DNA of 64,000 bases, taken from IMG/VR virus record IMGVR_UViG_3300018080_000114. One strand, 5' to 3'. Position numbers and translations under genes: made by a program. Below are positions 2,780-62,395 of the stretch, piece by piece. The notes beneath the pieces are model-generated. The model saw only the letters and a program-made list of their open reading frames with translations, did no database searches and was not told where the DNA came from. This stretch comes from a virus (Duplodnaviria > Heunggongvirae > Uroviricota > Caudoviricetes). Positions within the stretch are counted from its first letter, which is position 1, and each line of letters begins with the position of its first letter.

Positions 2780-2967
2780 ATGCAGCACTTGACGATCATC
2801 AGTGACTTTACTACATTGTTGCACAGACATGGACCGGATTCGAATGAGGTGGATGCGTTCATCAAGCAGTACGATCATCTGGAGGAGTTTGTGGGTAGGG
2901 CACGGACGTTGCGGGCTGTTTTTCGAGAAAAAGACAACGTGACTCAGGCACAGACCTGAGTTCAGAT

Positions 2968-3040
2968 GGGTGCGTAGCTCAATTGGCAGAGTTCCCGGCT
3001 CTTAACCGGATTGTTGGAGGTTCGATTCCTCCCGCGCCTA
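2968..3040 (+). tRNA. trnK: tRNA-Lys(CTT)
   Basis: Cloverleaf; anticodon loop CT-CTT-AA; T-loop TTCGATT. Confidence 0.9.
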
Positions 3041-3050
3041 TTGACAGTAA

Positions 3051-3160
3051 TGTCACGAAGACTGGGAGGTTGCAGGTTCGAATCCTGCCCACTATGGCAA
3101 AGCTCTGTTCCGGACAGGGGCCGTAAGTGGTAGCTCAACTGGTAGAGCGCCTGGTATGGC
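3051..3160 (+). ncRNA. Circularly permuted tRNA-like RNA, YrlA/Y-RNA-like
   Basis: T arm (3072-3088) precedes D arm (3133-3148); acceptor-like helix closed by a hairpin; the 5' and 3' ends pair around a CGAAG bulge. Confidence 0.65.
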
Positions 3161-3229
3161 CCAGTGGTGTAGTGGTTATCATTCAGGACTTTCGATCCTG
3201 AGACGAGAGTTCGATCCTCTCCTGGGCTA
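3158..3229 (+). tRNA. trnE: tRNA-Glu(TTC)
   Basis: Acceptor GGCCCAG/CTGGGCT; loop CT-TTC-GA. Confidence 0.9.
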
Positions 3230-3232
3230 TTC

Positions 3233-3315
3233 GGCTTGGTGGTGGAATTAGGCAGACACGCTGGTTTCAAACACCAGTGCCTTCGGGCGTGAGGGTTCGA
3301 TTCCCTCCTAAGCCA
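3233..3315 (+). tRNA. trnL: tRNA-Leu(CAA)
   Basis: Loop TT-CAA-AC; long variable arm. Confidence 0.9.
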
Positions 3316-3320
3316 TTAGC

Positions 3321-3392
3321 GGCCCAGTGGTGTAGTGGCTAACATTGATGGTTCTCAGCCATCAGCCGAGAGTTCGATCCTCTCCTGGGCTA
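3321..3392 (+). tRNA. trnE: tRNA-Glu(CTC)
   Basis: Loop TT-CTC-AG; acceptor and T arm identical to Glu(TTC). Confidence 0.9.
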
Positions 3393-3404
3393 ATGAAAAG
3401 TGAA

Positions 3405-3620
3405 TAAGCATAGGCAGTAAGAGTCTGAGAATCTCAGGGGAGGTCGCCTGCTTACGTAAGGGCCAAACCTCCAGCGCGACGCAACGCGACTGAGATGATC
3501 AGGTGACGTCACTGAAAAACCACCCCTTGCAGGAGAGCCATGCATGCAGCCATCGGCGTCGATGGGGCTCGATGAGTGTAAGTGTGTAGACTAGGTGGGA
3601 GTCACTGTCTATGTAGTGAC
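3405..3620 (+). ncRNA. Putative structured ncRNA with possible pseudoknot
   Basis: Several nested complementary segments and no tRNA cloverleaf. Confidence 0.35.
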
Positions 3621-3693
3621 GCGCTGTAGCTCAACTGGTTAGAGCACCGGATTGTCGATCCGAAGGTTGGGAGTTCGAGTCTCCCCAGCGTGA
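3620..3693 (+). tRNA. trnD: tRNA-Asp(GTC)
   Basis: Loop TT-GTC-GA; acceptor CGCGCTG/CAGCGTG. Confidence 0.9.
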
Positions 3694-3696
3694 TTA

Positions 3697-3770
3697 CGCC
3701 GACTAGCTCAATTGCGTAGAGTGCCTGTCTTACACACAGGTGGTTCTTGGTTCGAGTCCAAGGTCGGTGA
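3697..3770 (+). tRNA. trnV: tRNA-Val(TAC)
   Basis: Stem CCTGT/ACAGG; loop CT-TAC-AC. Confidence 0.9.
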
Positions 3771-3776
3771 TTGAAT

Positions 3777-3849
3777 AGGACTATGGTGAAAATGGATATC
3801 ATGCGCGGCTACGAACCGCGCGTTGTGGGTTCGAGTCCTGCTAGTCCTG
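3777..3849 (+). tRNA. trnR: tRNA-Arg(ACG)
   Basis: Stem CGCGG/CCGCG; loop CT-ACG-AA. Confidence 0.9.
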
Positions 3850-3850
3850 T

Positions 3851-3928
3851 TGTGATTGAGCACCGTAAAGGGATGAGAATCGTCTGGTATGCTACCCGAA
3901 AGGATGAACCCCAGACAGCTTAGTCACA
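3851..3928 (+). ncRNA. Putative small structured RNA between tRNAs
   Basis: 11-bp closing helix TGTGATTGAGC/GCTTAGTCACA; inner helix TCTGG/CCAGA; two copies of CC-G(T)AAA-GG(G)ATGA. Confidence 0.5.
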
Positions 3929-3931
3929 TAT

Positions 3932-4005
3932 GGGCGCGTAGCTCAATTGGGAGAGCACCTGCTTTGCACGCAGGGGGTTGTGGGTTCGAGTCCCATCGCG
4001 GTCCA
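3932..4005 (+). tRNA. trnA: tRNA-Ala(TGC)
   Basis: Loop TT-TGC-AC; G3:U70 retained; one extra base in the 3' acceptor strand. Confidence 0.85.
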
Positions 4006-4009
4006 TTAG

Positions 4010-4082
4010 GGGAATGTAGCTCAGTTGGAAGAGCGTTGGTGTGAAGTACCAAGCGTCGGAGGTTCGAGTCCTCCCATTCCCA
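4010..4082 (+). tRNA. trnF: tRNA-Phe(GAA)
   Basis: Stem TTGGT/ACCAA; loop GT-GAA-GT (atypical G32). Confidence 0.85.
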
Positions 4083-4087
4083 TTGAA

Positions 4088-4161
4088 GGCCCTGTAGCCC
4101 AATTGGCAGAGGCGGCTGGCTTAGAACCAGTCTAGTGTGGGTTCGACTCCCACTGGGGTCA
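4088..4161 (+). tRNA. trnL: tRNA-Leu(TAG), short variable loop
   Basis: Loop CT-TAG-AA; 5-nt variable region. Confidence 0.85.
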
Positions 4162-4322
4162 TTGCTTCTGGAAACCGTTTGAAGTGGTGAATTCTGGCAG
4201 TCCACGAAAGCTGACGAGCTTACGGTTGCGAATGGGTAGCGGTAGTGAAGCCCTAGGACAGAGCACATAGCAGGTCACACTGGAGAGTACTCTAAGGTGT
4301 GGCAAGCCAAGTCCAGAAGCAA
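4162..4322 (+). ncRNA. Putative multibranch structured ncRNA
   Basis: Perfect 11-bp terminal helix TTGCTTCTGGA/TCCAGAAGCAA exactly filling the gap between two tRNAs; inner helices AACCGT/ACGGTT, GTGG/CCAC, CACAC/GTGTG. Confidence 0.55.
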
Positions 4323-4324
4323 AC

Positions 4325-4411
4325 GCCAGCGTAGACTGCTAAGGAGGCGGCTCAGGCTGTAACCCTGATCCTCGTAAAGAGGCCGAGTGGGTTCGATACC
4401 CTCAGCTGGCA
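4325..4411 (+). tRNA. trnY: tRNA-Tyr(GTA)
   Basis: Loop CT-GTA-AC; long variable arm as in bacterial tRNA-Tyr. Confidence 0.85.
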
Positions 4412-4493
4412 TTGAAAGGAGAATTGATATGGGGCAGATTATAGCTTTGTGTTGTTGCTTTCTTTTTGGTTGGTTTTTTGGTGATCTGATTAA

Positions 4494-4566
4494 GCGCCGG
4501 TAGCCCAACGGCAGAGGCATCCGGTTTAAGCCCGGTTCAGTGGTGGTTCGAATCCACTCCGGTGCA
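4494..4566 (+). tRNA. trnL: tRNA-Leu(TAA), short variable loop
   Basis: Loop TT-TAA-GC; 5-nt variable region. Confidence 0.85.
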
Positions 4567-4582
4567 ATGAGGGGAGATTGAT

Positions 4583-4777
4583 ATGAGTGAGCTTCAAAGG
4601 GCAATGGAAAGTGATTTAGATTACTGGTACGGTTCAAATGAAGTTGACTTTGGTGACGTCCACAGTGTGGATGTGATGTTTCCTGGAGCTGTGGAGTTGT
4701 TGGTCCTTGAGTATGGACATGCAATGACAAGGGATCAAATTGAAGCAGTCTTCCAAGAGTGGACTAGTAAGCGATGA
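4583..4777 (+). CDS. Small hypothetical protein inside the tRNA array
   Basis: RBS GGGGAG; acidic 64-aa ORF filling the gap between tRNAs. Confidence 0.6.
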   Translation: MSELQRAMESDLDYWYGSNEVDFGDVHSVDVMFPGAVELLVLEYGHAMTRDQIEAVFQEWTSKR

Positions 4778-4848
4778 CCAAGTGTCCGAATGGCCTTAGG
4801 TAGCCGGTTGCAACCCGGCTTATGTGGGTTCGAATCCCACCTTGGTCT
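4776..4848 (+). tRNA. trnC: tRNA-Cys(GCA)
   Basis: Loop TT-GCA-AC; U73 discriminator. Confidence 0.9.
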
Positions 4849-4852
4849 TGAG

Positions 4853-4926
4853 TCCCCTGTAGCTCAGTTGGTAGAGCTTCGGACTGTTAATCCGAGTATG
4901 CGAAGGTTCGAGTCCTTCCGGGGGAG
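4853..4926 (+). tRNA. trnN: tRNA-Asn(GTT)
   Basis: Loop CT-GTT-AA. Confidence 0.9.
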
Positions 4927-4928
4927 TT

Positions 4929-4999
4929 GTGTTCGTGGTGTAGTGGTAGCATATTAGCCTGTGACGCTGAGGGGGCGGGTTCGAATCCCGTCGAACACC
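4929..4999 (+). tRNA. trnH: tRNA-His(GTG)
   Basis: Loop CT-GTG-AC; C73; the genomic -1 base is T, not G. Confidence 0.85.
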
Positions 5000-5128
5000 T
5001 TATGAAGAAGCCAAAGAGAAAACCGAGATTGCCAAGAGGCAAGATGCCTCCACCTTCACGAGTCCATAAGGATCGGAAGAAGGAGGAGAACAAAAAACGT
5101 TGCCGTCGTCCTATTGAGGAGGAATGAC

Positions 5129-5428
5129 ATGACCGTGGAAGAAATGTGCGAACTGTTTGATGCTGATGACAGTATATACCTCAAGTTCGAGGATATCGAG
5201 AATCCTCGTCATCCGAGACCGGATATCTGTGCGTTCTTGATGCTGCATGATATCTTGGGTGGAGAGGGAACAACGGACATGGTGAGTGCGGCTGAGCACG
5301 ATCAGATCTTCTTGGATGTGTCTCTGGAAGATTTGGCCCCATTGATCACTGAGGATCAAGTGAAGGATTTGATTCGGTGTGGCGTTCACACCGATGATTA
5401 TGGTGAAGGGCTGGCAATGTTTGCGTGA
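5129..5428 (+). CDS. Hypothetical protein
   Basis: RBS GAGGAGG; acidic ORF with DLCAFL/SAAEHDQIFL-like segments. Confidence 0.65.
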   Translation: MTVEEMCELFDADDSIYLKFEDIENPRHPRPDICAFLMLHDILGGEGTTDMVSAAEHDQIFLDVSLEDLAPLITEDQVKDLIRCGVHTDDYGEGLAMFA

Positions 5429-5639
5429 GGAGTGACATGTTCACAGACAAACAACGATTAGATTGGCTGCAAAAGCAGCTGGAGAAGAAAAAGTATACTG
5501 GAAAGTGCATCCTCCGTGGGTCTACGACGGGCCGAGGTTTTCGGCTTCATGAGACGAGTATGGAAGGTGCGGTGAATGATGTGCGAACGGCGATTGATCA
5601 GGCTATGGATGATCAGTTGTGGTGTAATGGTGAGCACCT

Positions 5640-5713
5640 GGGAGTGTAGCTCAGTTGGATAGAGCAACCGGCTTTTACCCGGTAAGTCGCAGGTTCGAGT
5701 CCTGCTACTCCCA
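5640..5713 (+). tRNA. trnK: tRNA-Lys(TTT)
   Basis: Loop CT-TTT-AC. Confidence 0.9.
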
Positions 5714-5717
5714 CTGT

Positions 5718-5791
5718 GCCGGTGTAGCTCAATGGACAAGAGCGCTCGCCTTGTAAGCGAGGGGTTGTGGGTTCGAATCCCTCCACCGGCT
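5718..5791 (+). tRNA. trnT: tRNA-Thr(TGT)
   Basis: Loop CT-TGT-AA. Confidence 0.9.
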
Positions 5792-5805
5792 TTGAAAGGA
5801 GCATT

Positions 5806-6069
5806 ATGTCTGATATACTGATAATCCCAGTTGTTTTGGTGGCCACTGTGGTGGTGTTGAGGGTGGCAAAGGCTATTACGGGCTGGCAACCGAAGGGAAA
5901 GAGATACTGTAACGGGTGTAAGTTTGGATCGGACAAAGCATGTTACCATTCCAACAATGTGGAGTTGGCCAGATCGTATGCGGAATGTGATAAGATTCCG
6001 ATCAAGCATCCGAGTGAGTTGAATCCAAATAATGATTGCCCATGGTATCGTGATTGGCCGGGCATGTAA
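5806..6069 (+). CDS. Small membrane-anchored Cys-rich hypothetical protein
   Basis: RBS AAAGGAG; N-terminal hydrophobic helix; CxxC. Confidence 0.6.
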   Translation: MSDILIIPVVLVATVVVLRVAKAITGWQPKGKRYCNGCKFGSDKACYHSNNVELARSYAECDKIPIKHPSELNPNNDCPWYRDWPGM

Positions 6070-6071
6070 TT

Positions 6072-6143
6072 AGACCTGTGGTGTAATGGTTAGCACCTGG
6101 GACTCTGACTCCCAAGATCTACGTTCGAATCGTAGCAGGTCTA
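6072..6143 (+). tRNA. trnQ: tRNA-Gln(CTG)
   Basis: Loop CT-CTG-AC. Confidence 0.88.
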
Positions 6144-6145
6144 TT

Positions 6146-6217
6146 GGGCCTGTAGTGTAGTGGTCAGCACCGGAGGCTTTGATCCTCCAAGCCCAGATTC
6201 GAATTCTGGCAGGCTCG
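6146..6217 (+). tRNA. trnQ: tRNA-Gln(TTG)
   Basis: Loop CT-TTG-AT. Confidence 0.88.
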
Positions 6218-6230
6218 TTAGGAGAAGCAG

Positions 6231-6551
6231 ATGATTACAGACAAAGACCGGATTGAGTTCTTGCAACGATGTATCGATGAGGGTGAAGTGACATGCTTTA
6301 CTTTCTCCGTAAGCGTGCGCACACAGATTGATCTAGAGATGGCGAAGACTGGAGACTGGAGTTTCCCAGACTTCCATTGTGATTGCGGTGTGGGATACAA
6401 TGAGTATGAGGACATGGATGACCCTGATGGGAACCTGCCCATCCTTCATTCCACAGAGATACACTATCATCCAAATGGGCAGGAGACATGGACGGACACA
6501 CGTCAGTGTAGAGTGTGTGGAGCGAAGTTCACTTTTGAGGAGAGCAATTGA
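6231..6551 (+). CDS. Hypothetical zinc-ribbon protein
   Basis: RBS AGGAGA; HCDCG and CRVCG motifs. Confidence 0.65.
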   Translation: MITDKDRIEFLQRCIDEGEVTCFTFSVSVRTQIDLEMAKTGDWSFPDFHCDCGVGYNEYEDMDDPDGNLPILHSTEIHYHPNGQETWTDTRQCRVCGAKFTFEESN

Positions 6552-7348
6552 TGGATAAGCCGATGTTGGCGAACAAGTTCGAAGACAAGAAGGCTACGTT
6601 CCCCTGTTATGTTCAGCCGAAGCTGGATGGGGTGCGGTGCTTGTTTGATGGGACACTGGCGTGGACACGAAATCTGAAAGAACACAAGCCCCATATAACA
6701 CGCATGCTTCAGGAGCGGTATCCTCTAATGCAGTGGCCTAGGGGGCTGGTGCTGGATGGTGAGTTGATGCTTCCGAATGCCACATTTCAGGAAACAGTGT
6801 CAGCGGTCAAGAAGAAGTATGAGATCTCTGCCACGTTGCAGTACCACGTGTATGACTGTTGGATGAAGGACCTTCCGGATCTCCCGTTCCACAAGAGGAT
6901 ACAAATTGTGAGAGAGGTGGTGAGAGATTATTGGGTGGTCACTCCCAAGCTGTATTTGGTGGAAGAGGTGTGGAATCAATTAGATGAGTGGATCGACCAA
7001 GGATACGAGGGCCTGATCTATCGGAACCCAAATGGTATCTACAAGCATGGGCGCAGTGGTCGTGACTTGCTCAAGCTGAAGAAGTTCCATGATGCGGAGT
7101 ATCAGATCGTGGGTGCGATTGAGGGCAAGGGCAAAGACATAGGAACACCGATCTGGGTGTGCCGTGTGTCGGCTACGGATGAGAGAACGTTCAAGGCCCG
7201 TCCGATGGGAACTTACGAGTGGCGCAGAGAAGCGTGGAAGAATCGTGTGTCTTACTATGGCAAGATGCTCACAGTGAAGTACCAGGAACTGACTGATGAA
7301 GGGATTCCGAGATTTCCAATTGGTGTGGAGGTTCGGGACTATGAGTAA
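6551..7348 (+). CDS. Minimal ATP-dependent DNA ligase
   Basis: Motif I QPKLDGVR, III LDGEL, IIIa YHVYD, IV GYEGLIYR, V LLKLK, C-terminal OB fold ending in RFP. Confidence 0.92.
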   Translation: MDKPMLANKFEDKKATFPCYVQPKLDGVRCLFDGTLAWTRNLKEHKPHITRMLQERYPLMQWPRGLVLDGELMLPNATFQETVSAVKKKYEISATLQYHVYDCWMKDLPDLPFHKRIQIVREVVRDYWVVTPKLYLVEEVWNQLDEWIDQGYEGLIYRNPNGIYKHGRSGRDLLKLKKFHDAEYQIVGAIEGKGKDIGTPIWVCRVSATDERTFKARPMGTYEWRREAWKNRVSYYGKMLTVKYQELTDEGIPRFPIGVEVRDYE

Positions 7349-7494
7349 GAAGAAAGAGGTCTGTTGGTTGTGTGGTGGGAAGGAGCCCAACGAGACTATC
7401 AAGGTCGGGTGTGAGACTCCTGGTGGTAAGCCATGCAAGACCAAAGAGGTCCAAGTCCATTTTGGGTGCCTGATGGATATGGACTATTGAAATA

Positions 7495-7567
7495 GGGATC
7501 GTAACTCAACGGATAGAGTACCGGCCTTCTAAGCCGTAAGTTGAAGGTTCGAATCCTTCCGGTCCCG
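7495..7567 (+). tRNA. trnR: tRNA-Arg(TCT)
   Basis: Loop CT-TCT-AA. Confidence 0.9.
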
Positions 7568-7588
7568 TTCAAATTTTCCGGAAAGAAT

Positions 7589-12495: not shown

Positions 12496-14930
12496 ATGAT
12501 GGACAATAAAGAAATGGCGGCTTTGAAGTTGTGGAAGCATGTGATCACGTGTGTGACGATTCTCGTGCTGTCGTTCCTGCTCTTCTGGAATGCTCGGACG
12601 AAGCATTTTACAGAAAATGGGTACACCAGAGAGGTGTTGCTGGGGCATAACACTCCGCAATGGGTCCTCCCTGCGAAAGAAAAGTGTGACGAATGTGGGA
12701 GATCCAAATGAAGTACCAGATAGCAGACGAGCGCCGGTTGAGGATCATCGAGGAAGCTGGTGGTGACTTCATCGATGACTTTGTGGGCCTGAACAAGGTC
12801 TGCTTCTGCACACGTGAGTACCTGCGAAGGGTACTCAGGAATATCTTTGACAACCGGGCTCAGCACAATCCGTATCTGGCGATTCACTTGGATGAAGAGA
12901 ACCACATCTATGAGGGTGTGAAGGTGAATGGGTGGCAGACAGATCATACGCAGGAACCTCCGGTAGAGTTTGTGGAGGTGGAGATGGCAGGAATTTCGTC
13001 GTCACTACAATTTGCCGTGAACAATATTAGGAGCGTACTCGTATGTTGACCTATGCAGAAGCTGTTCAGGCGCTGAAAGACGGAAAGACTCTCGTGCTCC
13101 GTGGTCATCGGTGGCATGATTACTTCTCATACGATGGTGTGACCATCACGTGTGAGCATTGCATGGGTGGTCGTTCGATGAGCGATCCTCCGTCATACAC
13201 AGATCTGAATGCGTGGTGGGATCTGGAAGTGAAGAACTTCTTGCACGAGGCTACATTGACTGTTTTTGGAGACGAGTGATGCCGAATAGAGATTTGTGTG
13301 GGCATCGTTGTGATTGCAACCACATACTATGGCTTTGGTGCAAGTCCTCATGTTATGGGGCTGGGAAAGTCAAATGTAGTAGATGCGGCACATATGTTTC
13401 TACTGATGATGAATCTAGATGGGTGTGGGAGACGAGTGATGGCAGTGATTAAAGAGAAAAAGAAGTCGGTTCAGATCCTGTGTCAAGGCTGTAAGAGGCT
13501 GTGGTGGGTCAAGCGTGGCACACTATGTCATCGCTTGGAAGTGTGTGGCCAATGCTCCCAGAAAATTTCTGGTCGCGTGTTGGCAAAAATGAAAGAAGAC
13601 GGCGAACAAGACGTCTAACCTCTACGTAGAAGGAGAATGAGATGATAGTCAAGTTGAACGGTCAGACATTCCGAGTTCAGTTCATCAAGGAAGTGGAGCC
13701 GCGCCGTGGTGGGCGTACCACAATCACAACCATCTGCAAGGTCTACCTGTACAAGGGCGAAGAAGCCTGTGAGAAGGACGAGACAAAGACCCGTCCGATC
13801 TGGGAGCTGTTCAGTGCTGGTATGGCTCGGCAGAATCCGGTGGACAAATACAACCATTTGGTCGGAAAGCGTGTTGCACTTCAGCATGCTATGATCAAGG
13901 TCACGAGTCCTACGGATGTGGAAGACGCCTGCATGGAAGAGCTGTGCAATATCGCAGCTTACCCTGACACGTTGTACCACTTCGACCGTGTCGAGCGGAG
14001 CGTGTTCGCCCAGCGTCTGGAGAGGGAATTCGACCAGAGTGCCTAGGTGGCCTAGATATTGCATCTGTTGCGGTGTAGAGTGCAAAGAGTGTGGCACTAC
14101 CAGACTCATGTACGAATGCCCTAAATGCAAGGTCTACGGTGACACGAGTAGTGGACGTTTCGTATCCAAGAAGCAACTGAAAGAGGAGCAGAGAAATGGG
14201 TGAAGAACAACATCTGATCATCTATCGGTTCGAGGATGAGCCACGTCTCATGGTGCTGGATTTCACAGATGCGATGCAGTTCCTGTGTGAGAATGAGGAA
14301 CTGTTGAACTTCCTGACGGCTGAAGAGGCCAAGACACAGGATCTCGATCTGATGACATTTCCAGTGAACACAGCGGTCTACATGAAAGGGACGATTCAAT
14401 GACGGATGAGTCGAATATGCTTGAGTTCGATGACATTGTTCACTTCTTCGCGTTCATCGGGTTCGAAGGCAAGGCTCCTCCACTACCAACAGCGTTCATA
14501 AGAGGTATCAACGGCGAGTGTGGCCGTGACGTACAGGCGATCTGCGCTGCTACAGCGGACGATTACTTCCAGAAGTTTAAGCCTTGGTGCCAGGAGTCTA
14601 TCCACAAATACGGCGAAGGTGAGATGAGGTCTAGGTTCCTGAAGCTCCATGAGCAGGGCCTTCTGGACTATCAGTATGAGGATCGGCCTAACGGAATGAC
14701 CGCTATGATCCTGGTGGTCTGGACTGGGGAGAAGTACGAAGATTACAGGGCTATCTCGGACCTGATAGATGAGCCCTTTGTCATTGGAGGAGAAGAATGA
14801 GTCATGAGTTGACGAAATGCAAGGACTCAAGCAAGCTGCGATGCACGAAATGCAATCGTGTTTGGGACACGATGGATGTGGATCTGGCTGCAACTGAGGA
14901 CTGCCCGAAGGGAGATGGGAATGAGCGGTA
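12496..14930 (+). other. Cluster of about 9 small hypothetical genes, several with zinc ribbons
   Basis: Tightly packed + strand ORFs with overlapping stop/start codons (e.g. 12496-12711, 13043-13279, 13642-14046, 14196-14402, 14399-14800). Confidence 0.65.
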
Positions 14931-47246: not shown

Positions 47247-47659
47247 AGATCTTTGAGTGGATAGGGAAGAGTTTCCTGGTGGCTATGGTGTTCATCGTGG
47301 CGTCTATAGGGGCGGCTGTGTTGTTGGCTGGTGGGTGTCTATTGGCTGATACTGTGGGCTCGGCATTGATGGGGCTGGGCGTACTGTTGATCGTGTGCTT
47401 GGTGTTGGGAGCGAAGTGGACATGGGGAAAAGACTCAACCTTTTAATAGAAAAATGCGGTGACTGTCCCTTCTGTAGGTATGATTGCAACTACGGAATGA
47501 GTTATGATTCAGGGTGGGATTGTCACCATCCAGAGGCAGAAGGGTTCCGTATTCCACAGGAGGGAGTGAGTGAAAAGGAGTCGGCTGAGGCCACTAAGAC
47601 ACTGCCAGATTGGTGCCCATTACCCAACGCAAAAGAGGTGAGTCCACCACTGATTCAGT

Positions 47660-47790
47660 AAAAAAAATTGCAAAATTCTCAGATTTTTCCGAACAGAGAG
47701 GGGTCGAGATATTTATATAGAGGTGGAGGGGTACGTTTTCTGGGTGGTTTTGTCGGATAGAACGTACCCTATGTTTGTTTTTGGGCCAGA
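47660..47790. promoter_or_regulatory. AT-rich intergenic region with an inverted repeat
   Basis: A8 tract, TTGCAA, ATTTATATA, and GGGTACGTT (47729-37) / AACGTACCC (47761-69). Confidence 0.4.
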
Positions 47791-49147: not shown

Positions 49148-49174
49148 GAACAAACTGTGAGCGGCTACGTATAG
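49148..49174 (+). promoter_or_regulatory. Putative phage-sigma (late) promoter before the portal gene
   Basis: GAACAAAC-N13-GTATAG. Confidence 0.5.
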
Positions 49175-49238
49175 AGATGTAGGTTGTTCGCAGGTTTCTG
49201 TCTTTTTATAGAAAAAGGGAATAGTAAGGGAGATCAGG

Positions 49239-51893: not shown

Positions 51894-52433
51894 ATGCCCA
51901 AGCGCAAATCGAAGAGCAGAACAAAGAGGCTGGAAGAGAATTATCCCAAGCTGCCTAAGGACAGTGAGGGCTACTGGGTATGTCGCTACTGTGGGGAGCG
52001 GATCAATCAGGGCAATAGGTACAGAGCTTGGTGCAGTGATGCGTGCTCAAAGAATGCCATGGAGCGAACATATTCCAACTGGGCACGTAATGCTTTAGAG
52101 AGGCGTGAGAATGGAATCTGCCAAGAGTGTGGGCTGGATACAACGGAGCTGGATCATGAGCTGAAGATCCTGCGGAGCCTAGTGAATCATACGTACAGGC
52201 AGTGCAGCAAGGAGAAGTGGCACTACAAGGATGTGCTGGAGACTCTGCTGCTGGCCATGAAGAAGTGTGGATTCAACACCGATCCGACGTGGGGCCGGTG
52301 GACTACGCTGTGGCATATGGATCACATTGTGGAGCACGCAGAGGGTGGAACGCTGGAGCCTGAGAACCTTCAGACATTGTGCGTGGCTTGCCACAAACGA
52401 AAGACCAAGAAGTATGTAAGCCAGGAGGGCTGA
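51894..52433 (+). CDS. HNH endonuclease
   Basis: CRYCG...CS..C zinc finger; CQECG; MDHIVEHAEGG...NLQTLCVACH. Confidence 0.9.
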   Translation: MPKRKSKSRTKRLEENYPKLPKDSEGYWVCRYCGERINQGNRYRAWCSDACSKNAMERTYSNWARNALERRENGICQECGLDTTELDHELKILRSLVNHTYRQCSKEKWHYKDVLETLLLAMKKCGFNTDPTWGRWTTLWHMDHIVEHAEGGTLEPENLQTLCVACHKRKTKKYVSQEG

Positions 52434-53521: not shown

Positions 53522-54013
53522 ATGAACGAGTTCGAGAAGGCGCTCGACATAGTAGAGGCCAAGACAGTGGAGGTCCCAGACGTGGTCTATCATGGTACGA
53601 ATTCAAAGCCATTCGATAGGTTCAAGCAGACGGGTGGGAAGGTGAGTACGGTCTTCGGGACAGAGGCAGTCAAGAGGACTGGGTTCTTCTTTGCGCCAGA
53701 CGAGGAGTTGGCAAGGGACTTCGGGAAGAACGTAGCAAAGGTCAAGCTGCATCTGGACAAGGTGATCGATCTGGAGCATGACACTACACTGGATGACAAG
53801 TGGGAGGCAGCTGGCTACAACCGTAAGTGGCTCACATCCGTGGAGACATGGGAGCTGTTCGACGGTGAGGACGGGGAAGAGTTCGTGAGGTTTTTACAGA
53901 AAAATGGATATGATGGAGCCGCATTTGTAGAGCCAGAAGCTGGTAAGGGTAGATCCGGCTGGGCGTTCGTGGCATTCGATCCGAAGGACATTGAGATACT
54001 TGAATGGAACTAA
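53522..54013 (+). CDS. ADP-ribosyltransferase-like protein
   Basis: VYHGT...F..F; GFFFA....A..FG; GYDG; resembles the ART domains of polyvalent phage proteins. Confidence 0.6.
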   Translation: MNEFEKALDIVEAKTVEVPDVVYHGTNSKPFDRFKQTGGKVSTVFGTEAVKRTGFFFAPDEELARDFGKNVAKVKLHLDKVIDLEHDTTLDDKWEAAGYNRKWLTSVETWELFDGEDGEEFVRFLQKNGYDGAAFVEPEAGKGRSGWAFVAFDPKDIEILEWN

Positions 54014-54025
54014 GGAGGACTAGGG

Positions 54026-54697
54026 ATGGATGAATTCAGGGATTTGGTAGAGTGTGGTAGTGCCGGTGTGCAGTTGGCATATGTCAAGGGACAGAAGGAC
54101 ATGACCTGGGGTCAGCTGGCAACGGCAGTGTATCAGATCCTAGAGACTGTTCACATTCCTGACGAGTGCATGGATGACGTCGAACGGTTCTGCAACGAAG
54201 CGAAGAGTCAGTTCCTGAGATGGGCCGAGAATGAAGTCAAGGCGGCTGGACTCTTGCAGGCTGACAGTGATTACGATGGGATGCTAGGTGAAGCGGTGTT
54301 GGATCTGGTCAATGTGTTTGACTCACAGAACCATTCCGGGATGAGCGCTGCGATGGTCAGAGCTATCTTCGATAACCTAGCGAACTGGAAGCCACTGTCT
54401 CCGTTGACGGACAATCCGGATGAGTGGATGGAAGTGAGTGAGGAGCTGTGGCAGTCAAGGCGAAACCCGGCGTGCTTCTCGAAGGATGGAGGTAAGACAT
54501 ACGAGGACAACAACGATCCATGCTGGCTGCATGAGGATGAAGATGGATGTACCTACTTCTCCAGGCCAGAGAATCCAGAGGACATTACGATTCACGAGAG
54601 TGAGCCGTATGAGGGTAAGGTGAACAAACAGGAGCTGGCACGGTTTGGCTCTGACAAGGACAAGAAGAAAAAGGAAGACGAGAAAGATGAGTCTTGA
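54026..54697 (+). CDS. Hypothetical phage protein
   Basis: E.ELKAAG...HSG.SA...PLSPLT...DEW....Q..R....F. Confidence 0.7.
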   Translation: MDEFRDLVECGSAGVQLAYVKGQKDMTWGQLATAVYQILETVHIPDECMDDVERFCNEAKSQFLRWAENEVKAAGLLQADSDYDGMLGEAVLDLVNVFDSQNHSGMSAAMVRAIFDNLANWKPLSPLTDNPDEWMEVSEELWQSRRNPACFSKDGGKTYEDNNDPCWLHEDEDGCTYFSRPENPEDITIHESEPYEGKVNKQELARFGSDKDKKKKEDEKDES

Positions 54698-56767: not shown

Positions 56768-57122
56768 GGGTGATCTGGGTAACACGGAGGGAGTGCCTCT
56801 GTGGGTGCAGGTGATATGCCGCACTATCTGGATCGAGTTGTAAGGAGGATGTATCATGAGAATGCCGGAAGCAGGAGAGTGTCTTGTGGGCAAAGTGTGT
56901 GTCTGTTCAGTGGGCAGACCGTTCATCGTAACGCACCAGCAGGCGTTTCCGTGGGGCGTAGCGTGGGCAGGTCTTGGCCTGGATGGGAAGGGTACTGCGT
57001 GCTCGTCCAATCCATGTGTTATTGCCGAGAGCGGACATGAGTTCCATGACAAGTTGTTTGAGCGATTCGGAGGGAGGATGAGCCACTTCGCAGATGGGAA
57101 GTGATTTTTTCTGAAAAACAAT

Positions 57123-57150
57123 TTGGATTGTGCAACGGATGCCGTATACT
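57123..57150 (+). promoter_or_regulatory. Sigma70-like promoter upstream of a structured RNA
   Basis: TTGGAT-N16-TATACT. Confidence 0.6.
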
Positions 57151-57639: not shown

Positions 57640-57667
57640 TTGCATTCTTTGGGATATGGCTTATACT
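57640..57667 (+). promoter_or_regulatory. Sigma70-like promoter
   Basis: TTGCAT-N16-TATACT followed by TTAGG. Confidence 0.75.
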
Positions 57668-59460
57668 TTAGGTGTAAGCTGAAACCCTTTGAGGAGCTGA
57701 GATATGGAACTTGACCGACTGGCACTGACGATCACAGAAGAGGATCTACAGGGCAGGGATCAGGTGTGGATCAAGCTGGCGGGTGGCAATCATGTCCATC
57801 TGACGCTGCACAAGCACAACTTCCGGATCGTGGCGTGGGTGGGTCAGTCGTGGAGTAAGTTGGTTAAGAAGATGTATCGATATCGGTGTGAGGGCTGAAC
57901 GATGAGTATCGTAGACTGCATGTTGGTTGCAGCTGCCATAGCGTTTGTGGAATTCTACGCCGTGATGCATAGAGGCGTGCTTGGAGTAAGAGATGAGGCT
58001 GTACCACAATGCTTGGTCTAACTGTAGGAAGAATTGGGATGCAAGGGATGTGCAGATGGTCGATGAGGCTATCGAGGATCGAGGACCTTCCTACGCTATG
58101 GCATATTCAGGCTTGCTGGCAAAGAGCTTGTTGGAGAAGGGAATCATTGAGGGGCGGTCTCCCAAGTCTGTGAAGTGGAAAATTCGTGAGAGGGCTCAGA
58201 GGAGGATGAACGATGAGCTGTTGTGATGGTTGGAAGTATCGAGATGACGAGGTCAATGGGATCTGTCCTGAGTGTGGAGGTCCTACCGTGGATGGTGAGG
58301 CGCAGCAGGGTTGCAACTATTCTCCTGTCGAGTGCAAGACCTGCGGTGATGCTCCCTGTGATTTGTCCTGTTAGGGGAAGGTGATGAGTTGTTTTGCGGA
58401 TACACAAGCAGTGGTCGAGCGGGATGCCGTGGGGCGATCTCGGATCTTTGATGTAGGAGCTGAGTCATGCTGAAGCCCGAAGAGCGACAGACAATCATGG
58501 ACAATATCGTAGCATTGTCGGATGAGGAAGCTGTGAGCTACCTGATCTCCTACGCAAGCAATGCTGGGGACTTTGATCGGGGCTGGCACATCATGCAGCT
58601 GCTGCGGACTGACGTGCTGGCTCGAATGAAGAAGGGGCAGTGATGTACGTTCACGGAGAGTATGACGAACATGGGATGCGGATCTACGTAGGTTCTGAGT
58701 GTGTGGCTGAGTACCATTCCGATGAGCCTGAGGATGTGGAAGAGAATCGCAGCCTGTGTCTACAAGAGGGCCAGGAGACAGCGGAGGAAAAGGGTCTGCC
58801 GTGGTCCGGTTGCCATTATGTGGGGATGCCTGATGGAGAATTTATGGTGTGAGAAATGTGGAGCGCCGGTGGTGGCAACCAAGGTGAGAGATATAATCTC
58901 GGTGAAGCCATGCGGGAACTGTCTGCGGATTGCGATACGTGAGGCGGTGAAGGCTGGACGATTGGCAGCTATCGCGGAGTACGGTCTTGAGGGGGATTCC
59001 AAATGATGGTGTGGATCGTGTCAACAGATGGCTACTGGGATGGTGCGATTCGGGGCCGGTGTGCGAAGGATGCCGAGGGTGTCAAGAGGATCGTCACCGA
59101 GCAACGTGAGATCGGCTTCCTGGCCAAGGTCCGGAATATCGAGGTGGACTTTGAGAACCGGAAGGTGCTCTTCGAGGAGGCTCCACGGTGGGTTGATTTG
59201 GACGATGAGCAGTGGTGGGGCCAGCTGGTGTATGAGCTGATTCCGATAGATGTGATGGGAGCGGACGATGAAGTGTCCTAGGTGCAACAAGGTGGTGGAT
59301 ATTGACATTCCAATGCGGAATGCGGAGAATTATGGGAGCCACTTGTACATACTCAGATGCGAGCACTGTGAGGGCCTGTACAGTACGTACATCTCTCGCA
59401 CGGTATCGGCGCATGATCCGGAGATGGTGAATGATCCGGATGCGATTCCTGATTTTTGAT

Positions 59461-59488
59461 TTGCATTCTCTCCAGGATGGCGTATACT
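59461..59488 (+). promoter_or_regulatory. Sigma70-like promoter
   Basis: TTGCAT-N16-TATACT followed by TTAGG. Confidence 0.75.
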
Positions 59489-61446
59489 TTAGGTGTACAT
59501 TAATCCTTTGAGGAGATGTGTGATGGCAACTGAGACCGCAACCGAATGTCGAATCTGTGGTGCAGAGCTGTGCAAGCCTGGAGACAGCGTTGCCCTGCAA
59601 CTGTGCCAGAGGCACGAGCAGCAAGAGCGGACGAGGCTCTATGAGGCCCAGAAGGCTGAGCGGCATAGTGCTTCGGAGCGAGACAATCTCCTGGAGTGTG
59701 TTCGCAAGCTGCTGGACTGTGGGTTCCGTGAGAATGGTGGCTGGTTCGCTTGTCGTCCGAATGACGATGACCTGGACTACGCAGCTGAGGTGTTGAAGCA
59801 GGCGACTGGGGAGGTGCGCTAAGATGGCTGGTAACGACATTGCGACAATCACGGTGAACGGCAAAGAGTCGAAGATGCAGGTGGCTACGTTGCTGAGTCT
59901 CTTGAACGGAGCTGCGTGCCACAATATCGATCATCAGAGGGAAGAGGAGGCTAAGACTCTGGGCGAGCTGACTGCTCACAAGGGCCTGGAGGAAGAGAAC
60001 GTCCGCAATGCTCTGATGAACCTCAGGCACTTCGAGGAAGAGCTGGAGCTGATCGAGTCCATCAAGACTGAACTGGGGATCGGGAGGTAGTCATGCCTTA
60101 CGTCAACATGAAGAAGCTGATCACTGAGGTGGCCAAGTCGCGTGGTTGGGCGATGGTTCCTGAGGGAATCACCAAGAAGATCGATGACCGGGGAGCTGGG
60201 ATGTTCGGGATCTCCATGAAGGGTGTGGAGTCGGTTGTCTCTGAGCTGAAGGTGGGCGACAGTCTCGATGAGCTGAAGGGCGGGATCGCGGAGGCTCTGG
60301 ACCGGATGGAGGGCAGCTTCGTCCTGCTGTCCATGGGCTATGAGATCTACGAGGAGGATGACGATGGACAAGTTGGACAAGATAGTTGAGGCCATAGAGG
60401 AGCTGGGAGCGGCGCGTAGGGCATCTGATGAGTATCCGAACTGTGCGGCCTCTCAGCGGAACCTGGAGACGAGCAGAGAGGAGCTGAAGTGGCTTCTTGA
60501 GGAGGTGTTGGACTGATGGCCAAGTACAGGATCATCATGGAGTGTCCATACAGTCAGATGAAGGTGACTAGGGCCATTGCAGATCTGTGCAATGGGACAC
60601 TCTTTGTCGGGCGTTTGGATGGGACCGATGAGGTCCAGGATCGATTTGATCATACGGTGGCTACTATTGAGGAGATCGAAGATGAGAGCTAAGGCATTTC
60701 TGTGTGTTCTGGTTCTACTGGTGGCGATGGTGTTGGTGGGCTGTGATGGCAGACCGAATAAGACTGCCCAGTACCAGGAGGGCCAGCAGGTGCAGGTGAA
60801 GATCTCTGGGGTTGAGGGGATGGTCATCGGTGTGTATCCGAAGAAGGACTGTGTGAAGTACAAGGTGAAGGTGTACGTAGAAAGCGACATACTCCCGTTC
60901 TACCAGAATCAGTGGTACAAGGAATATGAGCTGAAATTGGTTCAGGAGGATGAACAATGAGTAGTTGGATCAAGTATCAGTGTTGGATCATCGTGATTCG
61001 TCTGTTGCTTAGCATTGAGATCGGGCTGCATGGGCGAAACCGGGAGGCGGTCCCTGGCACTATCGATAAGGCCGAGAACCTTCTGGAGCTGCTTGGGCGA
61101 CGGCAGAATGAGTTGGGCAAGGACATTGCACGGAATACTGCGGAGGACGAGAAATGACACGCAGATTGAAATGGATCGTGGTCATGGTCGTGGCGATCAT
61201 GATCATGGTGACTGGCTTCTTTGTGGTCATCGACAGCAAACCATCGCCCAAGCCCCTGTTCAAAGTGGGGCAGACTGTGGAGATGCGGTTTGGTACGGAT
61301 CAGGGTCTGGTCATGAAGGTGGGCCGGAGCTTGGGAGGCGATTATATCTACCATGTGAAGTTCTACTACAAGAATGGAACTGAGCAGGTTCGGAAGTACA
61401 AGGGTATTGAATTGGAGTTGCCGAGGCCGAGGAAATGAGGTGAAGG

Positions 61447-61740
61447 ATGAAGGTGAAGAGCATAGAGTACGATGGGGCATATCCAAACCTGTGCAGCGGA
61501 ACGCTGAAGGTGGTGACCAGCATCGGTCTGCCTCTCGTGGAGAAGGTGTGGGTGTTCCCTGATTTCTGCCTGAGTTCAGGTGGGAGTGTGTGGTTCGATG
61601 ATGAATGGGATGAGCACGTGGAGTATGGTGATTGGACCGTGACTGACTGGCCTAAGGATTTCCCTGAGGAGCTGAAGGAAGCCGTAGAGGAGATGGTGAA
61701 TCAGGAGATACCACAGGGCTGTTGTGGAGGTTGCATATGA
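61447..61740 (+). CDS. Small phage protein with C-terminal CCGGC
   Basis: YDG.YPNLCSG.L...N.EIP.GCCGGC. Confidence 0.7.
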   Translation: MKVKSIEYDGAYPNLCSGTLKVVTSIGLPLVEKVWVFPDFCLSSGGSVWFDDEWDEHVEYGDWTVTDWPKDFPEELKEAVEEMVNQEIPQGCCGGCI

Positions 61741-62395
61741 TACTGTACGGTGTGTACAAGAACATAGACATGACAGAGGGGCGTGGGCCGATGGTGCTGG
61801 AGTCCTTGTGGTTCAGCAAGGAGAAAGCTGTGAAGCGCATCCAGAAGATCTCTGGTGTGGACAAGCCCCATGGTATTGGAAATCAGGAGTGGTATGGCAG
61901 CTTTCATTATATCAAGGAGCTGCACACAGCGGATGAACTGTCTGGGTTCGTGGTTCCTGGTGTCGTGCCTGGGGTGGAGAAGTACAAGGCAGATTTCTTG
62001 TGGCCACATGAGGATGGGACTGTCGAGGAAGCGGGCTATGAGTTCGCCAATGCTCGGACAGAGGAGTACCGTCAGAATTGGTGGAGGTGCTTGGTGGCAC
62101 GTGTGACTTTGGAGGCGAGGCATGGCTAAGATCAAAGTGATTCTACCCGCAAGTGAAGTCCCGGACAAGTCGAAGGTCTACAAGCCAGCTGGGAAGAAGT
62201 GGTACAGACTCCTGACTGAGCTGAAGATCTATGCGACGGATAGCAAGGTGAATGTCGAGTATCCGGAGGGTTCGGTGTTCCTGCATGATGAGCACGGGCG
62301 CATCAACATGATCGGCGGTGATGAGCAGCTGGTTCTGGTGTTCGAGGACTATCTGGAGGCGGCAAAGTTTTTTGCAGAAAAAGCTGAATGCGACC

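Follow-up and report, generated by a model that had tools for sequence, protein, structure and literature searches.

A dispersed sense-strand T-run/AGAAAAA motif in an uncultivated tailed phage and its close relatives, tentatively read as a compact promoter

In phage T4, gp55, a sigma-like factor akin to sigma region 2, reads middle and late promoters, phage-specific short boxes of which TATAAATA is one; these often sit inside the 3' part of the preceding gene and drive the following one. At the RNA level, T4 RegB and RegA act on early mRNAs. In bacteria, the UP element of promoters is a site for the C-terminal domain of the RNA polymerase alpha subunit (alpha-CTD), its consensus reportedly being a T-run followed by an A-run, and TTNTTT is a sense-strand T-rich pause motif that depends on NusG in Bacillus subtilis. 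The stoperators of cluster A mycobacteriophages are asymmetric sites of 13-14 bp, more than 10 per genome and oriented along transcription, recognised by the immunity repressor; they are found both at promoters and dispersed elsewhere, in short intergenic gaps of temperate phages (PMC9283540; PMC6550527). The PeSL cassettes of T4-like phages are terminator/promoter composites that join a stem-loop to a sigma70 early promoter (PMC2839356; PMC4122927).

The motif described here resembles several of these systems and is identical to none. Like a T4 late promoter, it is a short box rich in A, has no -35 element to go with it, occupies the sense strand and is often found in the 3' end of the preceding gene; its TAGAAAAA matches the T4 box at 6 of 8 positions, and the phage that carries it encodes a protein with sigma region 2 only, together with a T4-like gp32, a UvsX-like recombinase, a clamp loader, a portal and a tRNA array. 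Unlike T4 late promoters, it does not precede structural (late) genes, and unlike the T4 box it has an obligatory-looking T-run 2 nt upstream; compared with gp55, the phage protein (111 aa) has homologs that are small two-domain ECF-like sigmas. As with stoperators, the motif is asymmetric and oriented along transcription, with some copies at promoters and the rest dispersed, but most copies lie in open reading frames (ORFs), the phage is apparently lytic and the sequence is unrelated.

We analysed 64,000 nt (the window) of the IMG/VR record IMGVR_UViG_3300018080_000114 (Caudoviricetes), from an uncultivated phage of about 140-150 kb, and compared it with four IMG/VR contigs at 70-80% DNA identity, giving five genomes including the window's. 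An earlier note on this DNA had described a quasi-palindromic 14-bp site in about 13 copies. The strings it quoted are present at all 13 coordinates and most of the copies hold, the exceptions being 12605, 18364 and 41105, which are weak (two mismatches each), and 57105, a different object. The consensus first proposed, TTTTTNYAGAAAAA, has three exact copies (49203, 53891 and 62369) against none in 100 shuffles, but the site at 2919 carries a G at its Y position, so TTTTT-V-N-AGAAAAA(G), with four exact copies, is the better consensus. On the plus strand TTTTTNNAGAAAAA has 4 exact copies, and 10 once a single mismatch is allowed (Markov null about 0.05); at up to two mismatches there are 14 plus-strand sites, and 26 hits over both strands compared with 1.9 expected. 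AGAAAAA, which ranks second among over-represented heptamers, is found 14 times on the plus strand and twice on the minus strand (4.65 expected for both together), bearing out the strand bias noticed earlier. The T-rich half-site noticed before about 10 of 13 of these heptamers is likewise strongly associated with them, though the count is 9 of 14 plus-strand copies with at least four T in five at positions -7 to -3 (background 0.86%, binomial P = 5e-16), and the pairing of T-run and A-run is restricted to the motif's own order and spacing. The motif, a 14-base signal consisting of a T-run, two free bases and AGAAAAA, is real. It is not a true palindrome: the AG never varies, whereas its mirror positions are free, and AGAAAAA is the stricter half, the T-run the looser. 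No flanking conserved element surrounds it, and the signal is self-contained, like -10-only promoters.

Coding sequence does not account for the copies. Across 1000 synonymous-codon shuffles, in which intergenic copies were left unshuffled, the observed 4, 10 and 14 sites at zero, up to one and up to two mismatches were never attained; the shuffled genomes gave 1.0, 2.5 and 5.3-5.7, mostly because of the unshuffled intergenic copies. The genes named as hosts in the earlier note agree with Pfam (HTH_36 initiator, DnaB_C-like, PolA 3' end, clamp loader, TerL 3' end, dUTPase_2 and ART-PolyVal), and the in-gene copies do, as it claimed, use codons that are rare in the genome: GAA is 23% of glutamate codons (354, compared with 1180 GAG), AAA 13% of lysine codons (154, compared with 1038 AAG) and TTA 2% of leucine codons (31 of 1508). 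These copies fall in all three reading frames, and at conserved amino acids the same codon is kept at 42 of 48 motif codons against a background of 0.61, a test that is biased because the sites were picked for being conserved. About half of the window sites lie at orthologous positions in relatives. Together, these comparisons of sequence show selection on the motif at the DNA or RNA level, and the general inference of a functional dispersed signal stands after both the shuffles and the comparison with relatives.

Among the individual sites, all on the plus strand except where stated, the clearest is an exact copy, TTTTTCGAGAAAAA (2919-2932), 34 nt before the first tRNA (Lys-CTT, 2967) of a 20-tRNA array. 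G001 has an exact copy, TTTTTCTAGAAAAA, 32 nt before the orthologous tRNA-Lys, with flanks at about 70% identity; a translational role cannot explain a copy kept 32-34 nt before a tRNA array in two genomes at about 72% identity. A second exact copy, TTTTTATAGAAAAA (49203-49216), precedes the portal ATG by 22 nt, with the Shine-Dalgarno sequence 3' of it and a class-2 promoter (49148-49174) 30 nt 5' of it; the site is present in L010 and absent in seven other relatives, which have unrelated sequence upstream of the portal gene. The third, TTTTTACAGAAAAA (53891-53904), is in the ART-PolyVal gene (TTT TTA CAG AAA AAT), 121 nt before a Tad3-like gene, and G002 and G004 carry it unchanged, despite differences at flanking synonymous positions and in the downstream genes. 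The fourth, TTTTTGCAGAAAAA (62369-62382), is near the 3' end of a 94-aa ORF, with 24 nt to the stop and 13 nt to the downstream -35 box of an early promoter (62396-62423); G002 keeps the promoter and lacks the site.

Within replication genes, TTTCTCCAGAAAAA (15414-15427) sits in the HTH_36 initiator gene, 165 nt 3' of three iterons, with an ortholog, TTTCTATAGAAAAA, at 48054 in G001. The weaker TATTTGAAGAAAAA (19921-19934), in an SNF2-type helicase gene, appears to be orthologous to TATTTGAAGAAAAG at 53646 in G001, judging from a shared KYLKK peptide context. At the end of polA, GTTCTATAGAAAAA (27675-27688) lies 15 nt before the stop and 24 nt upstream of a class-2 promoter; its orthologs GTTTTGTAGAAAAA and GTTTTATAGAAAAA in G003, L109 and G004 are stronger, and the site is degenerate in G001. 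The clamp-loader copy TTTCTCTAGAAAAA (29375-29388) occurs in this genome only, and G004 encodes the same SLEK peptide without the motif (TCC CTG GAG AAA). In the dUTPase-portal region, CTTTTCTAGAAAAA (47164-47177) lies towards the 3' end of the dUTPase gene, with the next ORF 65 nt further on, and is common to L011 only, four other relatives having a different peptide there; TTTTAATAGAAAAA (47441-47454) overlaps the stop of a 67-aa ORF, 42 nt before the next ORF. Of the weak sites, 12605 has no alignable ortholog, 18364 is just as weak in G001, and the motif is missing at the position of 41105 in relatives. By its arrangement, the sequence at 57105-57118, TTTTTTCTGAAAAA (no strand assigned), is of another class than the remaining sites: it has TG for AG, and its T-run is that of a terminator-like hairpin (57084-57103), followed by an A-tract from which 4 nt separate the downstream -35 box of an early promoter (57123-57150), an UP-element-like position. 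Neither G002 nor G004 conserves this site; its promoter is conserved.

The motif is enriched on the sense strand in all four relatives; distant relatives and 80 loci of unrelated phages show no enrichment and almost no copies. Among non-palindromic sites with at most one mismatch in the five genomes, all but one are on the sense strand. The distance from a site to the next gene or tRNA start has a median of 111 nt, compared with 323 nt for random positions (Mann-Whitney P = 1e-4). Counted as 16 independent site families, 11 have a start within 125 nt, where 23% would be expected (P = 1.5e-4). The majority of copies fall in ORFs, ahead of the stop codon, with clustering at the 3' ends of genes and at the junctions between them. 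The motif occurs in early, replication and packaging regions and is densest in the hypervariable dUTPase-portal region in three genomes; in G001, 28 kb of structural genes and 15.6 kb of upstream glycan genes contain no copy. Many copies turn over rapidly among relatives.

We tentatively favor reading the motif as a compact, self-contained promoter without a -35 element, serving non-late transcription and read by a phage sigma; the earlier note, right about a functional dispersed signal, had left this option, the simplest one, out. Promoter identity, transcription start position and reader protein are what we infer here. The sequence T5-N2-AGAAAAA(G) would be a directional cis-acting signal for a non-late transcription programme, in which the AGAAAAA half would serve as a -10-like element and the T-run as an upstream A/T-rich aid to binding or melting. 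Host RNA polymerase with a phage-encoded factor would read it, and transcription would start a few bases 3' of the motif, giving the tRNA array a leader of about 25-30 nt and the portal one of about 15 nt with a Shine-Dalgarno sequence; copies in the 3' parts of genes would drive the following gene. The absence from structural and glycan genes in G001 fits one temporal class, and one copy in G002 counts for a promoter: it has a terminator-like hairpin on one side and, at 26 nt, a gene start on the other, a place that calls for a promoter. Several observations count against this reading. Copies 300-520 nt from the next start exist in the initiator gene and inside the portal gene (both conserved among relatives) and in the clamp-loader gene (window-specific); an orthologous copy in G002 and G004 is 1-2 nt from the ATG of a conserved small ORF, leaving no room for a leader; and the class-2 promoter upstream of the portal puts the motif there at the position of an operator or 5'-UTR element. 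The T5/A5 near-symmetry is not expected of a -10 element, and the motif is unlike any characterised -10 consensus, matching TATAAATA of T4 at no more than 6 of 8 positions.

The candidate reader of such a -35-less promoter is the early-expressed protein with sigma region 2 only, encoded at 833-1168 on the minus strand in the early divergent operon (Pfam Sigma70_r2; PHROGs sigma factor; PDB FliA/ECF sigma2). A second sigma-like protein, of 198 aa and two domains (41146-41742, plus strand), likely reads the class-2 promoters, GAACA-N16-CGTATA, and not the 14-bp motif; because a two-domain sigma fits these bipartite promoters, the region-2-only protein is left without an assigned promoter. Against this candidate, it is a truncated member of a two-domain family, with homologs 160-170 aa long that have a C-terminal helix-turn-helix, and identity to the G001 homolog is only 30%, although the two genomes share one and the same motif. 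The helix-turn-helix protein at 14921-15949, put forward earlier as a reader, looks more like the replication initiator, with its own iterons at 15181-15249, than like the protein that reads this motif.

The stoperator-like silencing suggested earlier stays a live alternative, ranked below the promoter and somewhat unlikely. A post-early phage DNA-binding protein on the asymmetric 14-mer would block RNA polymerase initiation nearby or elongation, shutting down early and middle units and sparing the late structural module, which lacks sites. Many asymmetric sites oriented along transcription are found in cluster A mycobacteriophages (PMC9283540), the shape is quasi-palindromic, and copies adjoin promoters, 3' of the class-2 promoter at the portal and 5' of two early promoters and one class-2 promoter; copies deep in genes or touching an ATG pose no problem. 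However, stoperators occupy short intergenic gaps, whereas most copies here fall in ORFs, and this phage looks lytic: its replisome is T4-like, it has over 20 tRNAs, and the parts read show neither an integrase nor a repressor. The analysis found no candidate binding protein, the invariant AG with free mirror positions makes a symmetric dimer unlikely, and a roadblock requires neither the 125-nt bias before starts nor the fixed distance to the tRNA array.

It is less probable that the signal acts in RNA, UUUUUNNAGAAAAA in early and middle transcripts being recognised by an endoribonuclease or RNA-binding protein with sequence specificity, which would process the tRNA precursor and time the decay or translation of non-late mRNAs, as T4 RegB and RegA do with early mRNAs. 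The strict sense-strand location, the late structural genes without copies, the copies that adjoin the tRNA array, fall in a 5' UTR or abut start codons, and the T4 precedent of sequence-specific control of early mRNAs all suit this. Yet the sites have no RNA structure, T-run mismatches are not offset by changes in the A-run, endoribonucleases known from phages have short targets (GGAG for RegB) and not 14-nt ones, no candidate nuclease was found, and a cut close to the 3' end of an ORF would leave its message inactive.

A DNA landmark outside transcription, whether parS/matS/NBS-like, a replication or packaging site, or a T5-like strand-specific nick, is very unlikely. The sites are dispersed and quasi-palindromic, the conserved initiator-gene copy is near iterons, strand specificity is what one would look for in single-strand nicks, and an HNH endonuclease is encoded at 51894-52433. 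The parS/matS/NBS and packaging readings offered earlier nevertheless fit poorly, since non-palindromic sequence, sense-strand restriction, position within 125 nt of starts and absence from the structural module (about 44 kb with the glycan genes) are properties of a signal tied to transcription; many copies also turn over rapidly, no par genes lie near sites, and the sequence is unlike parS, matS or NBS.

Slighter still is the chance that the T-run on the sense strand stops RNA polymerase with no need of a hairpin, perhaps aided by NusG or a phage factor, marking the ends of non-late units alone or, with the A-rich half, as a stop-start composite. Such T-rich pausing has a precedent, copies cluster at gene 3' ends and junctions, canonical intrinsic terminators are not above shuffles (9 compared with 8.1 expected), and in two intergenic copies, 57105 and 35080 of G002, the T-run doubles as the U-tract of a terminator-like hairpin. 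Against it, no hairpin lies upstream of the other window sites or of the G001 tRNA-upstream copy (folding z-scores about 0), a stop inside an ORF before its stop codon would yield non-stop mRNAs, the strict half is AGAAAAA, and at the portal the motif would stand between promoter and gene.

Least probable is a UP element, with T-run and A-run as distal and proximal alpha-CTD sites in front of early promoters of the sigma70 type (TTTGCAT-N17-TATACT): the shape is like that of the UP consensus, and 57105, 62369 and weaker copies (858 on the minus strand, L018 11968 and G001 42679) lie 2-13 nt upstream of an early -35 box, the first two at about -40 to -62 of their promoters, but only 2 of 10 sites are followed by an early-type promoter (PWM 27-29, compared with less than -6 for all others), the tRNA and portal gaps (34 and 22 nt) are too short for a downstream -35/-10 promoter, and both UP-like copies are those not conserved in relatives, so we reject it as a general explanation and keep it for those two copies only. 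Like PeSL cassettes, the motif is a short regulatory unit repeated at the borders of small variable ORFs. Other sites lack the hairpin or sigma70 promoter of a PeSL unit; only 57105 has both parts, in the order hairpin, T-run, A-tract and early promoter.

The 14-bp motif, T5-N2-AGAAAAA(G) on the + strand, is far more frequent in the window than null models allow. Every string quoted in the earlier note was found where that note had placed it. There are three exact copies of TTTTTNYAGAAAAA, against none in shuffles, and four of TTTTTNNAGAAAAA on the + strand, rising to 10 with at most one mismatch and 14 with at most two, while a third-order Markov model predicts 0.02 exact copies and 0.05 with at most one mismatch. 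In 1000 shuffles that preserved every protein and the codon usage and left three intergenic copies unshuffled, the corresponding counts were 1.0, 2.5, and 5.3-5.7, essentially the three intergenic copies, and the observed 4, 10, and 14 were reached by none. In an unbiased ranking AGAAAAA is the second of all heptamers, behind a tRNA D-arm word, and TAGAAAAA and AGAAAAAG rank alongside the -10 box of the early promoters; a literature search for TAGAAAAA with phage and promoter gave nothing relevant. The impression that a T-rich half usually precedes AGAAAAA survives counting at a lower proportion than the figure of about 10 of 13 estimated by eye: 9 of 14 + strand copies have at least four T in the five positions from -7 to -3 (background 0.86%, P = 5e-16). 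The pattern TTTT-N4..6-AAAA has 8-12 matches per spacing where 0.25 is expected, whereas pairing of T-runs with A-runs is at chance level elsewhere (1-2 matches at N3 and N7) and the reverse order likewise gives none beyond chance.

Of the 10 sites in the window, seven fall within ORFs, several of them far from gene ends, and the in-gene copies span all three reading frames (F-L-Q-K-N and x-F-x-E-K, with F-S-R-K in relatives). As had been claimed, they draw on codons that the phage otherwise uses sparingly: AAA accounts for 13% of lysine codons, GAA for 23% of glutamate codons, and TTA for 2% of leucine codons. The use of three frames and of rare codons indicates selection on nucleotides rather than on a peptide, and codon-preserving shuffles, Markov nulls, and the three frames together rule out chance, codon bias, or a peptide motif. 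With rare codons kept in essential genes, the case for selection is unusually clean, and a motif held in this way predicts transcription-unit borders and is testable with a few synthetic fragments.

The motif is also enriched in related phages. Four IMG/VR contigs (G001-G004, 28-64 kb) and several metagenome fragments, retrieved through portal, polA, and neighbouring genes, share about 70-85% DNA identity with the window. Sense-strand sites with at most one mismatch number 6 in G002 (0.22 expected), 5 in G004 (0.05), 2 in G003 (0.07), and 2 in G001 (0.25); a back-to-front control pattern matched once in one relative and not at all in the other three. Almost no copies occur in 80 unrelated phage loci of comparable G+C (about 1.3 Mb), and relatives with 38-47% portal or polA identity have no sense-strand copy. 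Being enriched in close relatives and not in distant or unrelated phages, the motif is a property of one clade.

Individual sites differ in how well they persist. The site ahead of the tRNA array (2919 in the window, 33856 in G001) stands 34 and 32 nt, respectively, before tRNA-Lys, with flanks about 70% identical; in each genome a small hairpin, whose sequence differs between the two, separates it from the first tRNA (ACTCAGG/CCTGAGT at 2933-2966 of the window, GTGTG/CACAC at 33870-33901 of G001). The site within the initiator gene (15414) is matched at 48054 of G001, and that in the ART gene is identical across three genomes in which the flanking synonymous positions and the following genes differ. 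The polA 3' end carries a site that is weak in the window, degenerate in G001, and stronger in G003, G004, and the relative L109; a portal-internal site present in four relatives has been lost from the window through F-to-L and AAA-to-AAG changes. The site at 47164 is common to the relative L011 only and that at 49203 to L010 only. Not conserved are 29375, where G004 encodes the same peptide without the motif, 41105, 57105, and 62369, nor are AGAAAAA copies that lack the T-rich half. The expectation that sites should be kept in relatives is borne out, at 70-80% identity, for about half of those in the window, and the remainder turns over. Motif codons are identical in 42 of 48 cases at conserved amino acids, whereas the fraction for the remaining codons of these genes is 0.61 (P = 6e-5), a comparison that overstates the case because the sites were picked for being conserved. 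The shuffles and the conservation in relatives support the earlier note's claim of a functional dispersed site.

The anatomy of the motif was derived from 16 non-orthologous sites. Information is restricted to the 14 bp and a following G (10 of 16 sites), and no conserved -35 or other element lies within 60 nt on either side. AGAAAAA is nearly invariant, whereas the T-run accepts C, A, or G at single positions; the base after the T-run is never T and the next is mostly a pyrimidine. Of the quasi-palindrome originally described, the near-symmetry of T5 and A5 stands, but the site is no true palindrome: the positions that mirror the fixed AG vary, and a mismatch in the T-run is never offset by a matching change in the A-run. 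Both features make it unlikely that the site forms a hairpin or cruciform or binds a symmetric dimer, and a T5/A5 stem would have only five A-T pairs.

Where the sites lie, and on which strand, connects them with transcription. Across the five genomes, all non-palindromic sites with at most one mismatch are on the sense strand but one, the exception being an antisense, near-palindromic copy at 46941 of G001. The median distance to the next gene or tRNA start is 111 nt, compared with 323 nt for random positions (P = 1e-4). Among 16 independent site families, a start is no more than 125 nt away for 11 (23% expected) and no more than 50 nt away for seven (10% expected). Typically a site occupies the final 15-110 nt of the ORF before it, or a short intergenic gap. 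Sites are found in the tRNA, replication, packaging, and small-ORF regions, with a density peak between the dUTPase and portal genes, a region of small ORFs that is hypervariable among relatives. Two large blocks are empty. In G001, 28 kb of genes for the baseplate, tail fibres, and virion contain no site with at most one mismatch; on the window's own contig, the 15.6 kb of glycan-synthesis genes that lie upstream of the window have neither the motif nor an AGAAAAA heptamer. Given the site density of the remaining sequence, absence from the first block and 8.8 kb of the second has P of about 0.01. The sense-strand restriction, the bias upstream of starts, the fixed distance from the tRNA array, the lack of sites in the late module, and a G002 copy that follows a terminator-like hairpin and precedes a gene start together point to a signal tied to non-late transcription units. 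We file the motif as a clade-specific phage transcription signal, a kind of motif that is common in phage genomics.

The reading that we rank first, and hold tentatively, is that the motif is a compact phage-specific promoter. The closest known system is the T4-type promoter without a -35 box, which it resembles in having no conserved -35 or flanking element. It differs from the T4 late class, read by gp55, in that it is unlike in sequence and does not stand ahead of virion genes. Against a promoter are the conserved copies deep in genes, a copy abutting the ATG in two relatives, a copy downstream of the class-2 promoter of the portal gene, and the near-symmetry of T5 and A5. A search of RNA runs for this phage found none that carries it.

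A candidate reader is encoded in the early operon. The 111-aa protein at 833-1168 (- strand) matches Sigma70_r2 only, that is, region 2 only; it is a shortened form of a two-domain family, whose members, including the one in G001, have 160-170 aa with a helix-turn-helix at the C-terminus. The gene either encodes a natural minimal sigma or is truncated; a 75%-identical form of 111 aa is present in another sample, and the last codons of the gene overlap the -35 box of the early promoter driving the next gene (50-706). A sigma factor that lacks region 4 would require a promoter with no -35 box, which fits a self-contained motif, and we infer that this protein may read it. If so, this would be a new case in which a minimal sigma recognises a promoter.

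Two other promoter classes are present. Strong early promoters of the form TTTGCAT-N17-TATACTTTAGGT number at least ten, with TATACT boxes at 2446(-), 2515, 7611, 8771, 57145, 57662, 59483, 62418, 830(-), and 13(-) in the window and at 9903 and 12007 in L018, and many have A/T tracts or the word TTTTCCGRA immediately upstream of the -35 box. Class-2 promoters, GAACA-N16-CGTATA(G), are of ECF-sigma type; four or five occur, 9-65 nt before genes (the four main ones at 13604, 27713, 38414, and 49148, 11-65 nt from gene starts; also 40930, which is 189 nt from the next start), and they precede the putative TerS and portal genes, among others, whose orthologs in relatives carry them too. A 198-aa sigma-like protein (41146-41742), with a region-2-like segment and a C-terminal helix-turn-helix, suits these bipartite promoters. 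When the sites were scored with a weight matrix of the early promoters, 57105 and 62369 alone had a promoter downstream (27-29; every other site scored below -6), and an UP element, with its A/T tracts at -40 to -60 of a sigma70-type promoter, fails as a general explanation for this reason. These two copies and a few weak ones occupy UP-element positions, and the two are not conserved in relatives, so that such an element accounts at most for a minority of sites.

A directional operator or roadblock, for which the stoperators of cluster A mycobacteriophages are the reference (PMC9283540), is a lesser possibility. It would explain both the orientation rule and the copies that are awkward for a promoter, namely those deep in genes, at the ATG, and after the portal promoter. 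Stoperators, as asymmetric sites of 13-14 bp, are alike in copy number (here the window has 10 on the sense strand and its relatives 15), asymmetry, and orientation, but differ in location (early promoters and short intergenic gaps) and in genetic context; the reading is also without a candidate protein, and most sites lie in ORFs of an apparently lytic phage. The scan of about 70 proteins in the partly read genome found no repressor or integrase. A broader version, which we regard as doubtful, is that of a large, apparently lytic T4-like phage with a genome-wide directional silencing or stop-start network, in which about ten asymmetric 14-mers lie in early and middle genes, a phage protein would halt transcription there or the polymerase would stop of its own accord at the T-run, and the A-rich half would be the point of re-initiation. 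Such a network would amount to a stoperator-like system outside the temperate actinophages, held by rare codons in essential genes.

An RNA-level target that guides processing or decay, on the model of T4 RegB and RegA, agrees with the strand rule and with the lack of sites in late genes; we consider it unlikely. Should the motif prove to be a roadblock or an RNA target, a new phage group would join those with stoperator-like or RegB-like control. The role in genome organisation, packaging, or replication proposed earlier, along with nick sites, is very improbable, being disfavoured by the features that link the motif to transcription; parS, matS, and NBS sites in particular are at odds with sites that are strand-specific, asymmetric, start-biased, absent from about 44 kb, and not truly palindromic. 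A pause or termination signal at the T-run is likewise very improbable: two intergenic copies do follow a terminator-like hairpin, but the other sites have none and most lie in ORFs before the stop codon. A G+C-rich hairpin precedes the T-run only at 57105 in the window and at the intergenic 35080 of G002, the rest folding no better than shuffles, and an intrinsic terminator is rejected for this reason.

Several other known elements can be set aside. A class-2 -35 box (AGAAAAA against AGAACA) would require a GTA-type -10 box at a fixed distance downstream, and a MotA-box-like activator site a consistent -10-like box 12-14 nt downstream; neither is present. Two kinds of site are irreconcilable with a translational enhancer: the conserved one ahead of the tRNA array and those over 100 nt away from a start. 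The CodY box (AATTTTCWGAAAATT) fits 57105 only, the true sites having a spacer one base longer, and archaeal TATA/BRE elements do not suit a phage with sigma genes, Shine-Dalgarno sequences, and sigma70-type early promoters. A link to thymidine hypermodification finds no modification enzymes in the ORFs scanned. PeSL elements (PMC4122927) are alike in their association with variable small-ORF regions, but their structure of a stem-loop plus early promoter is seen at 57105 only.

Phage-specific transcription signals are key to the temporal programme of uncultivated phages, and this clade, from sediment and seawater, has genomes of about 140-150 kb, more than 20 tRNAs, two sigma-like genes, and no cultured member. 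A comparison with 50,697 phage records gave no DNA match for the window, and its TerL is about 30% identical to terminases of Rhizobium, Vibrio, and Gordonia phages. A relative whose 64 kb are 41% complete by a CheckV-type estimate, and a 139-kb contig with one window protein, indicate a genome size near 140-150 kb. G+C is 50-54%, with a strongly positive GC skew. From about 2,570 on, the + strand carries nearly all genes, including an array of 20 tRNAs (2967-7567) and genes for RtcB, an HTH_36 initiator, a DnaB-like helicase, an SNF2 helicase, PolA with an N-terminal UDG-like domain, a clamp loader, gp32-like and RecA/UvsX-like proteins, TerL, a T4-type portal, dUTPase, ART-PolyVal, and a Tad3-like protein; a short divergent early operon occupies 50-2401 on the - strand.

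Some of these loci have features of their own. The HTH_36 initiator gene contains three tandem iterons, GGGTACGACACAGATG(A/T)CGT(G/A)CC, at 15181-15249, 22-24 bp apart and followed by an A-rich stretch with repeated AACAGGTAAA, and this region is probably a replication origin, arranged as in the O gene of lambda. The N-terminal domain of PolA (25007-27703) belongs to the uracil-DNA-glycosylase superfamily, and its Cys-rich C-terminal tail is missing in distant relatives. A 303-aa early protein (1158-2069, - strand) falls in no Pfam family and has more than 585 relatives on IMG/VR contigs at 50-69% identity, spanning a G+C range of 33-73%. The stretch between dUTPase and portal (47247-49238) is full of small ORFs and has little or no DNA homology to most relatives, parts being common to L010 and L011 only, among them an odd A8 run and TTGCAAAATTCTCAGATTTTTCCGAAC at 47660-47700. 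The ART-PolyVal ADP-ribosyltransferase gene is followed by the Tad3-like (anti-Thoeris) gene (53522-54697; Pfam E = 5e-34 for the latter), and the genes following the ART gene are different across three relatives. The 15.6-kb glycan-synthesis cluster immediately upstream of the window on the same contig (L118, 1-15629) encodes glycosyltransferases, sulfotransferases, a radical SAM enzyme, and dTDP-sugar enzymes.
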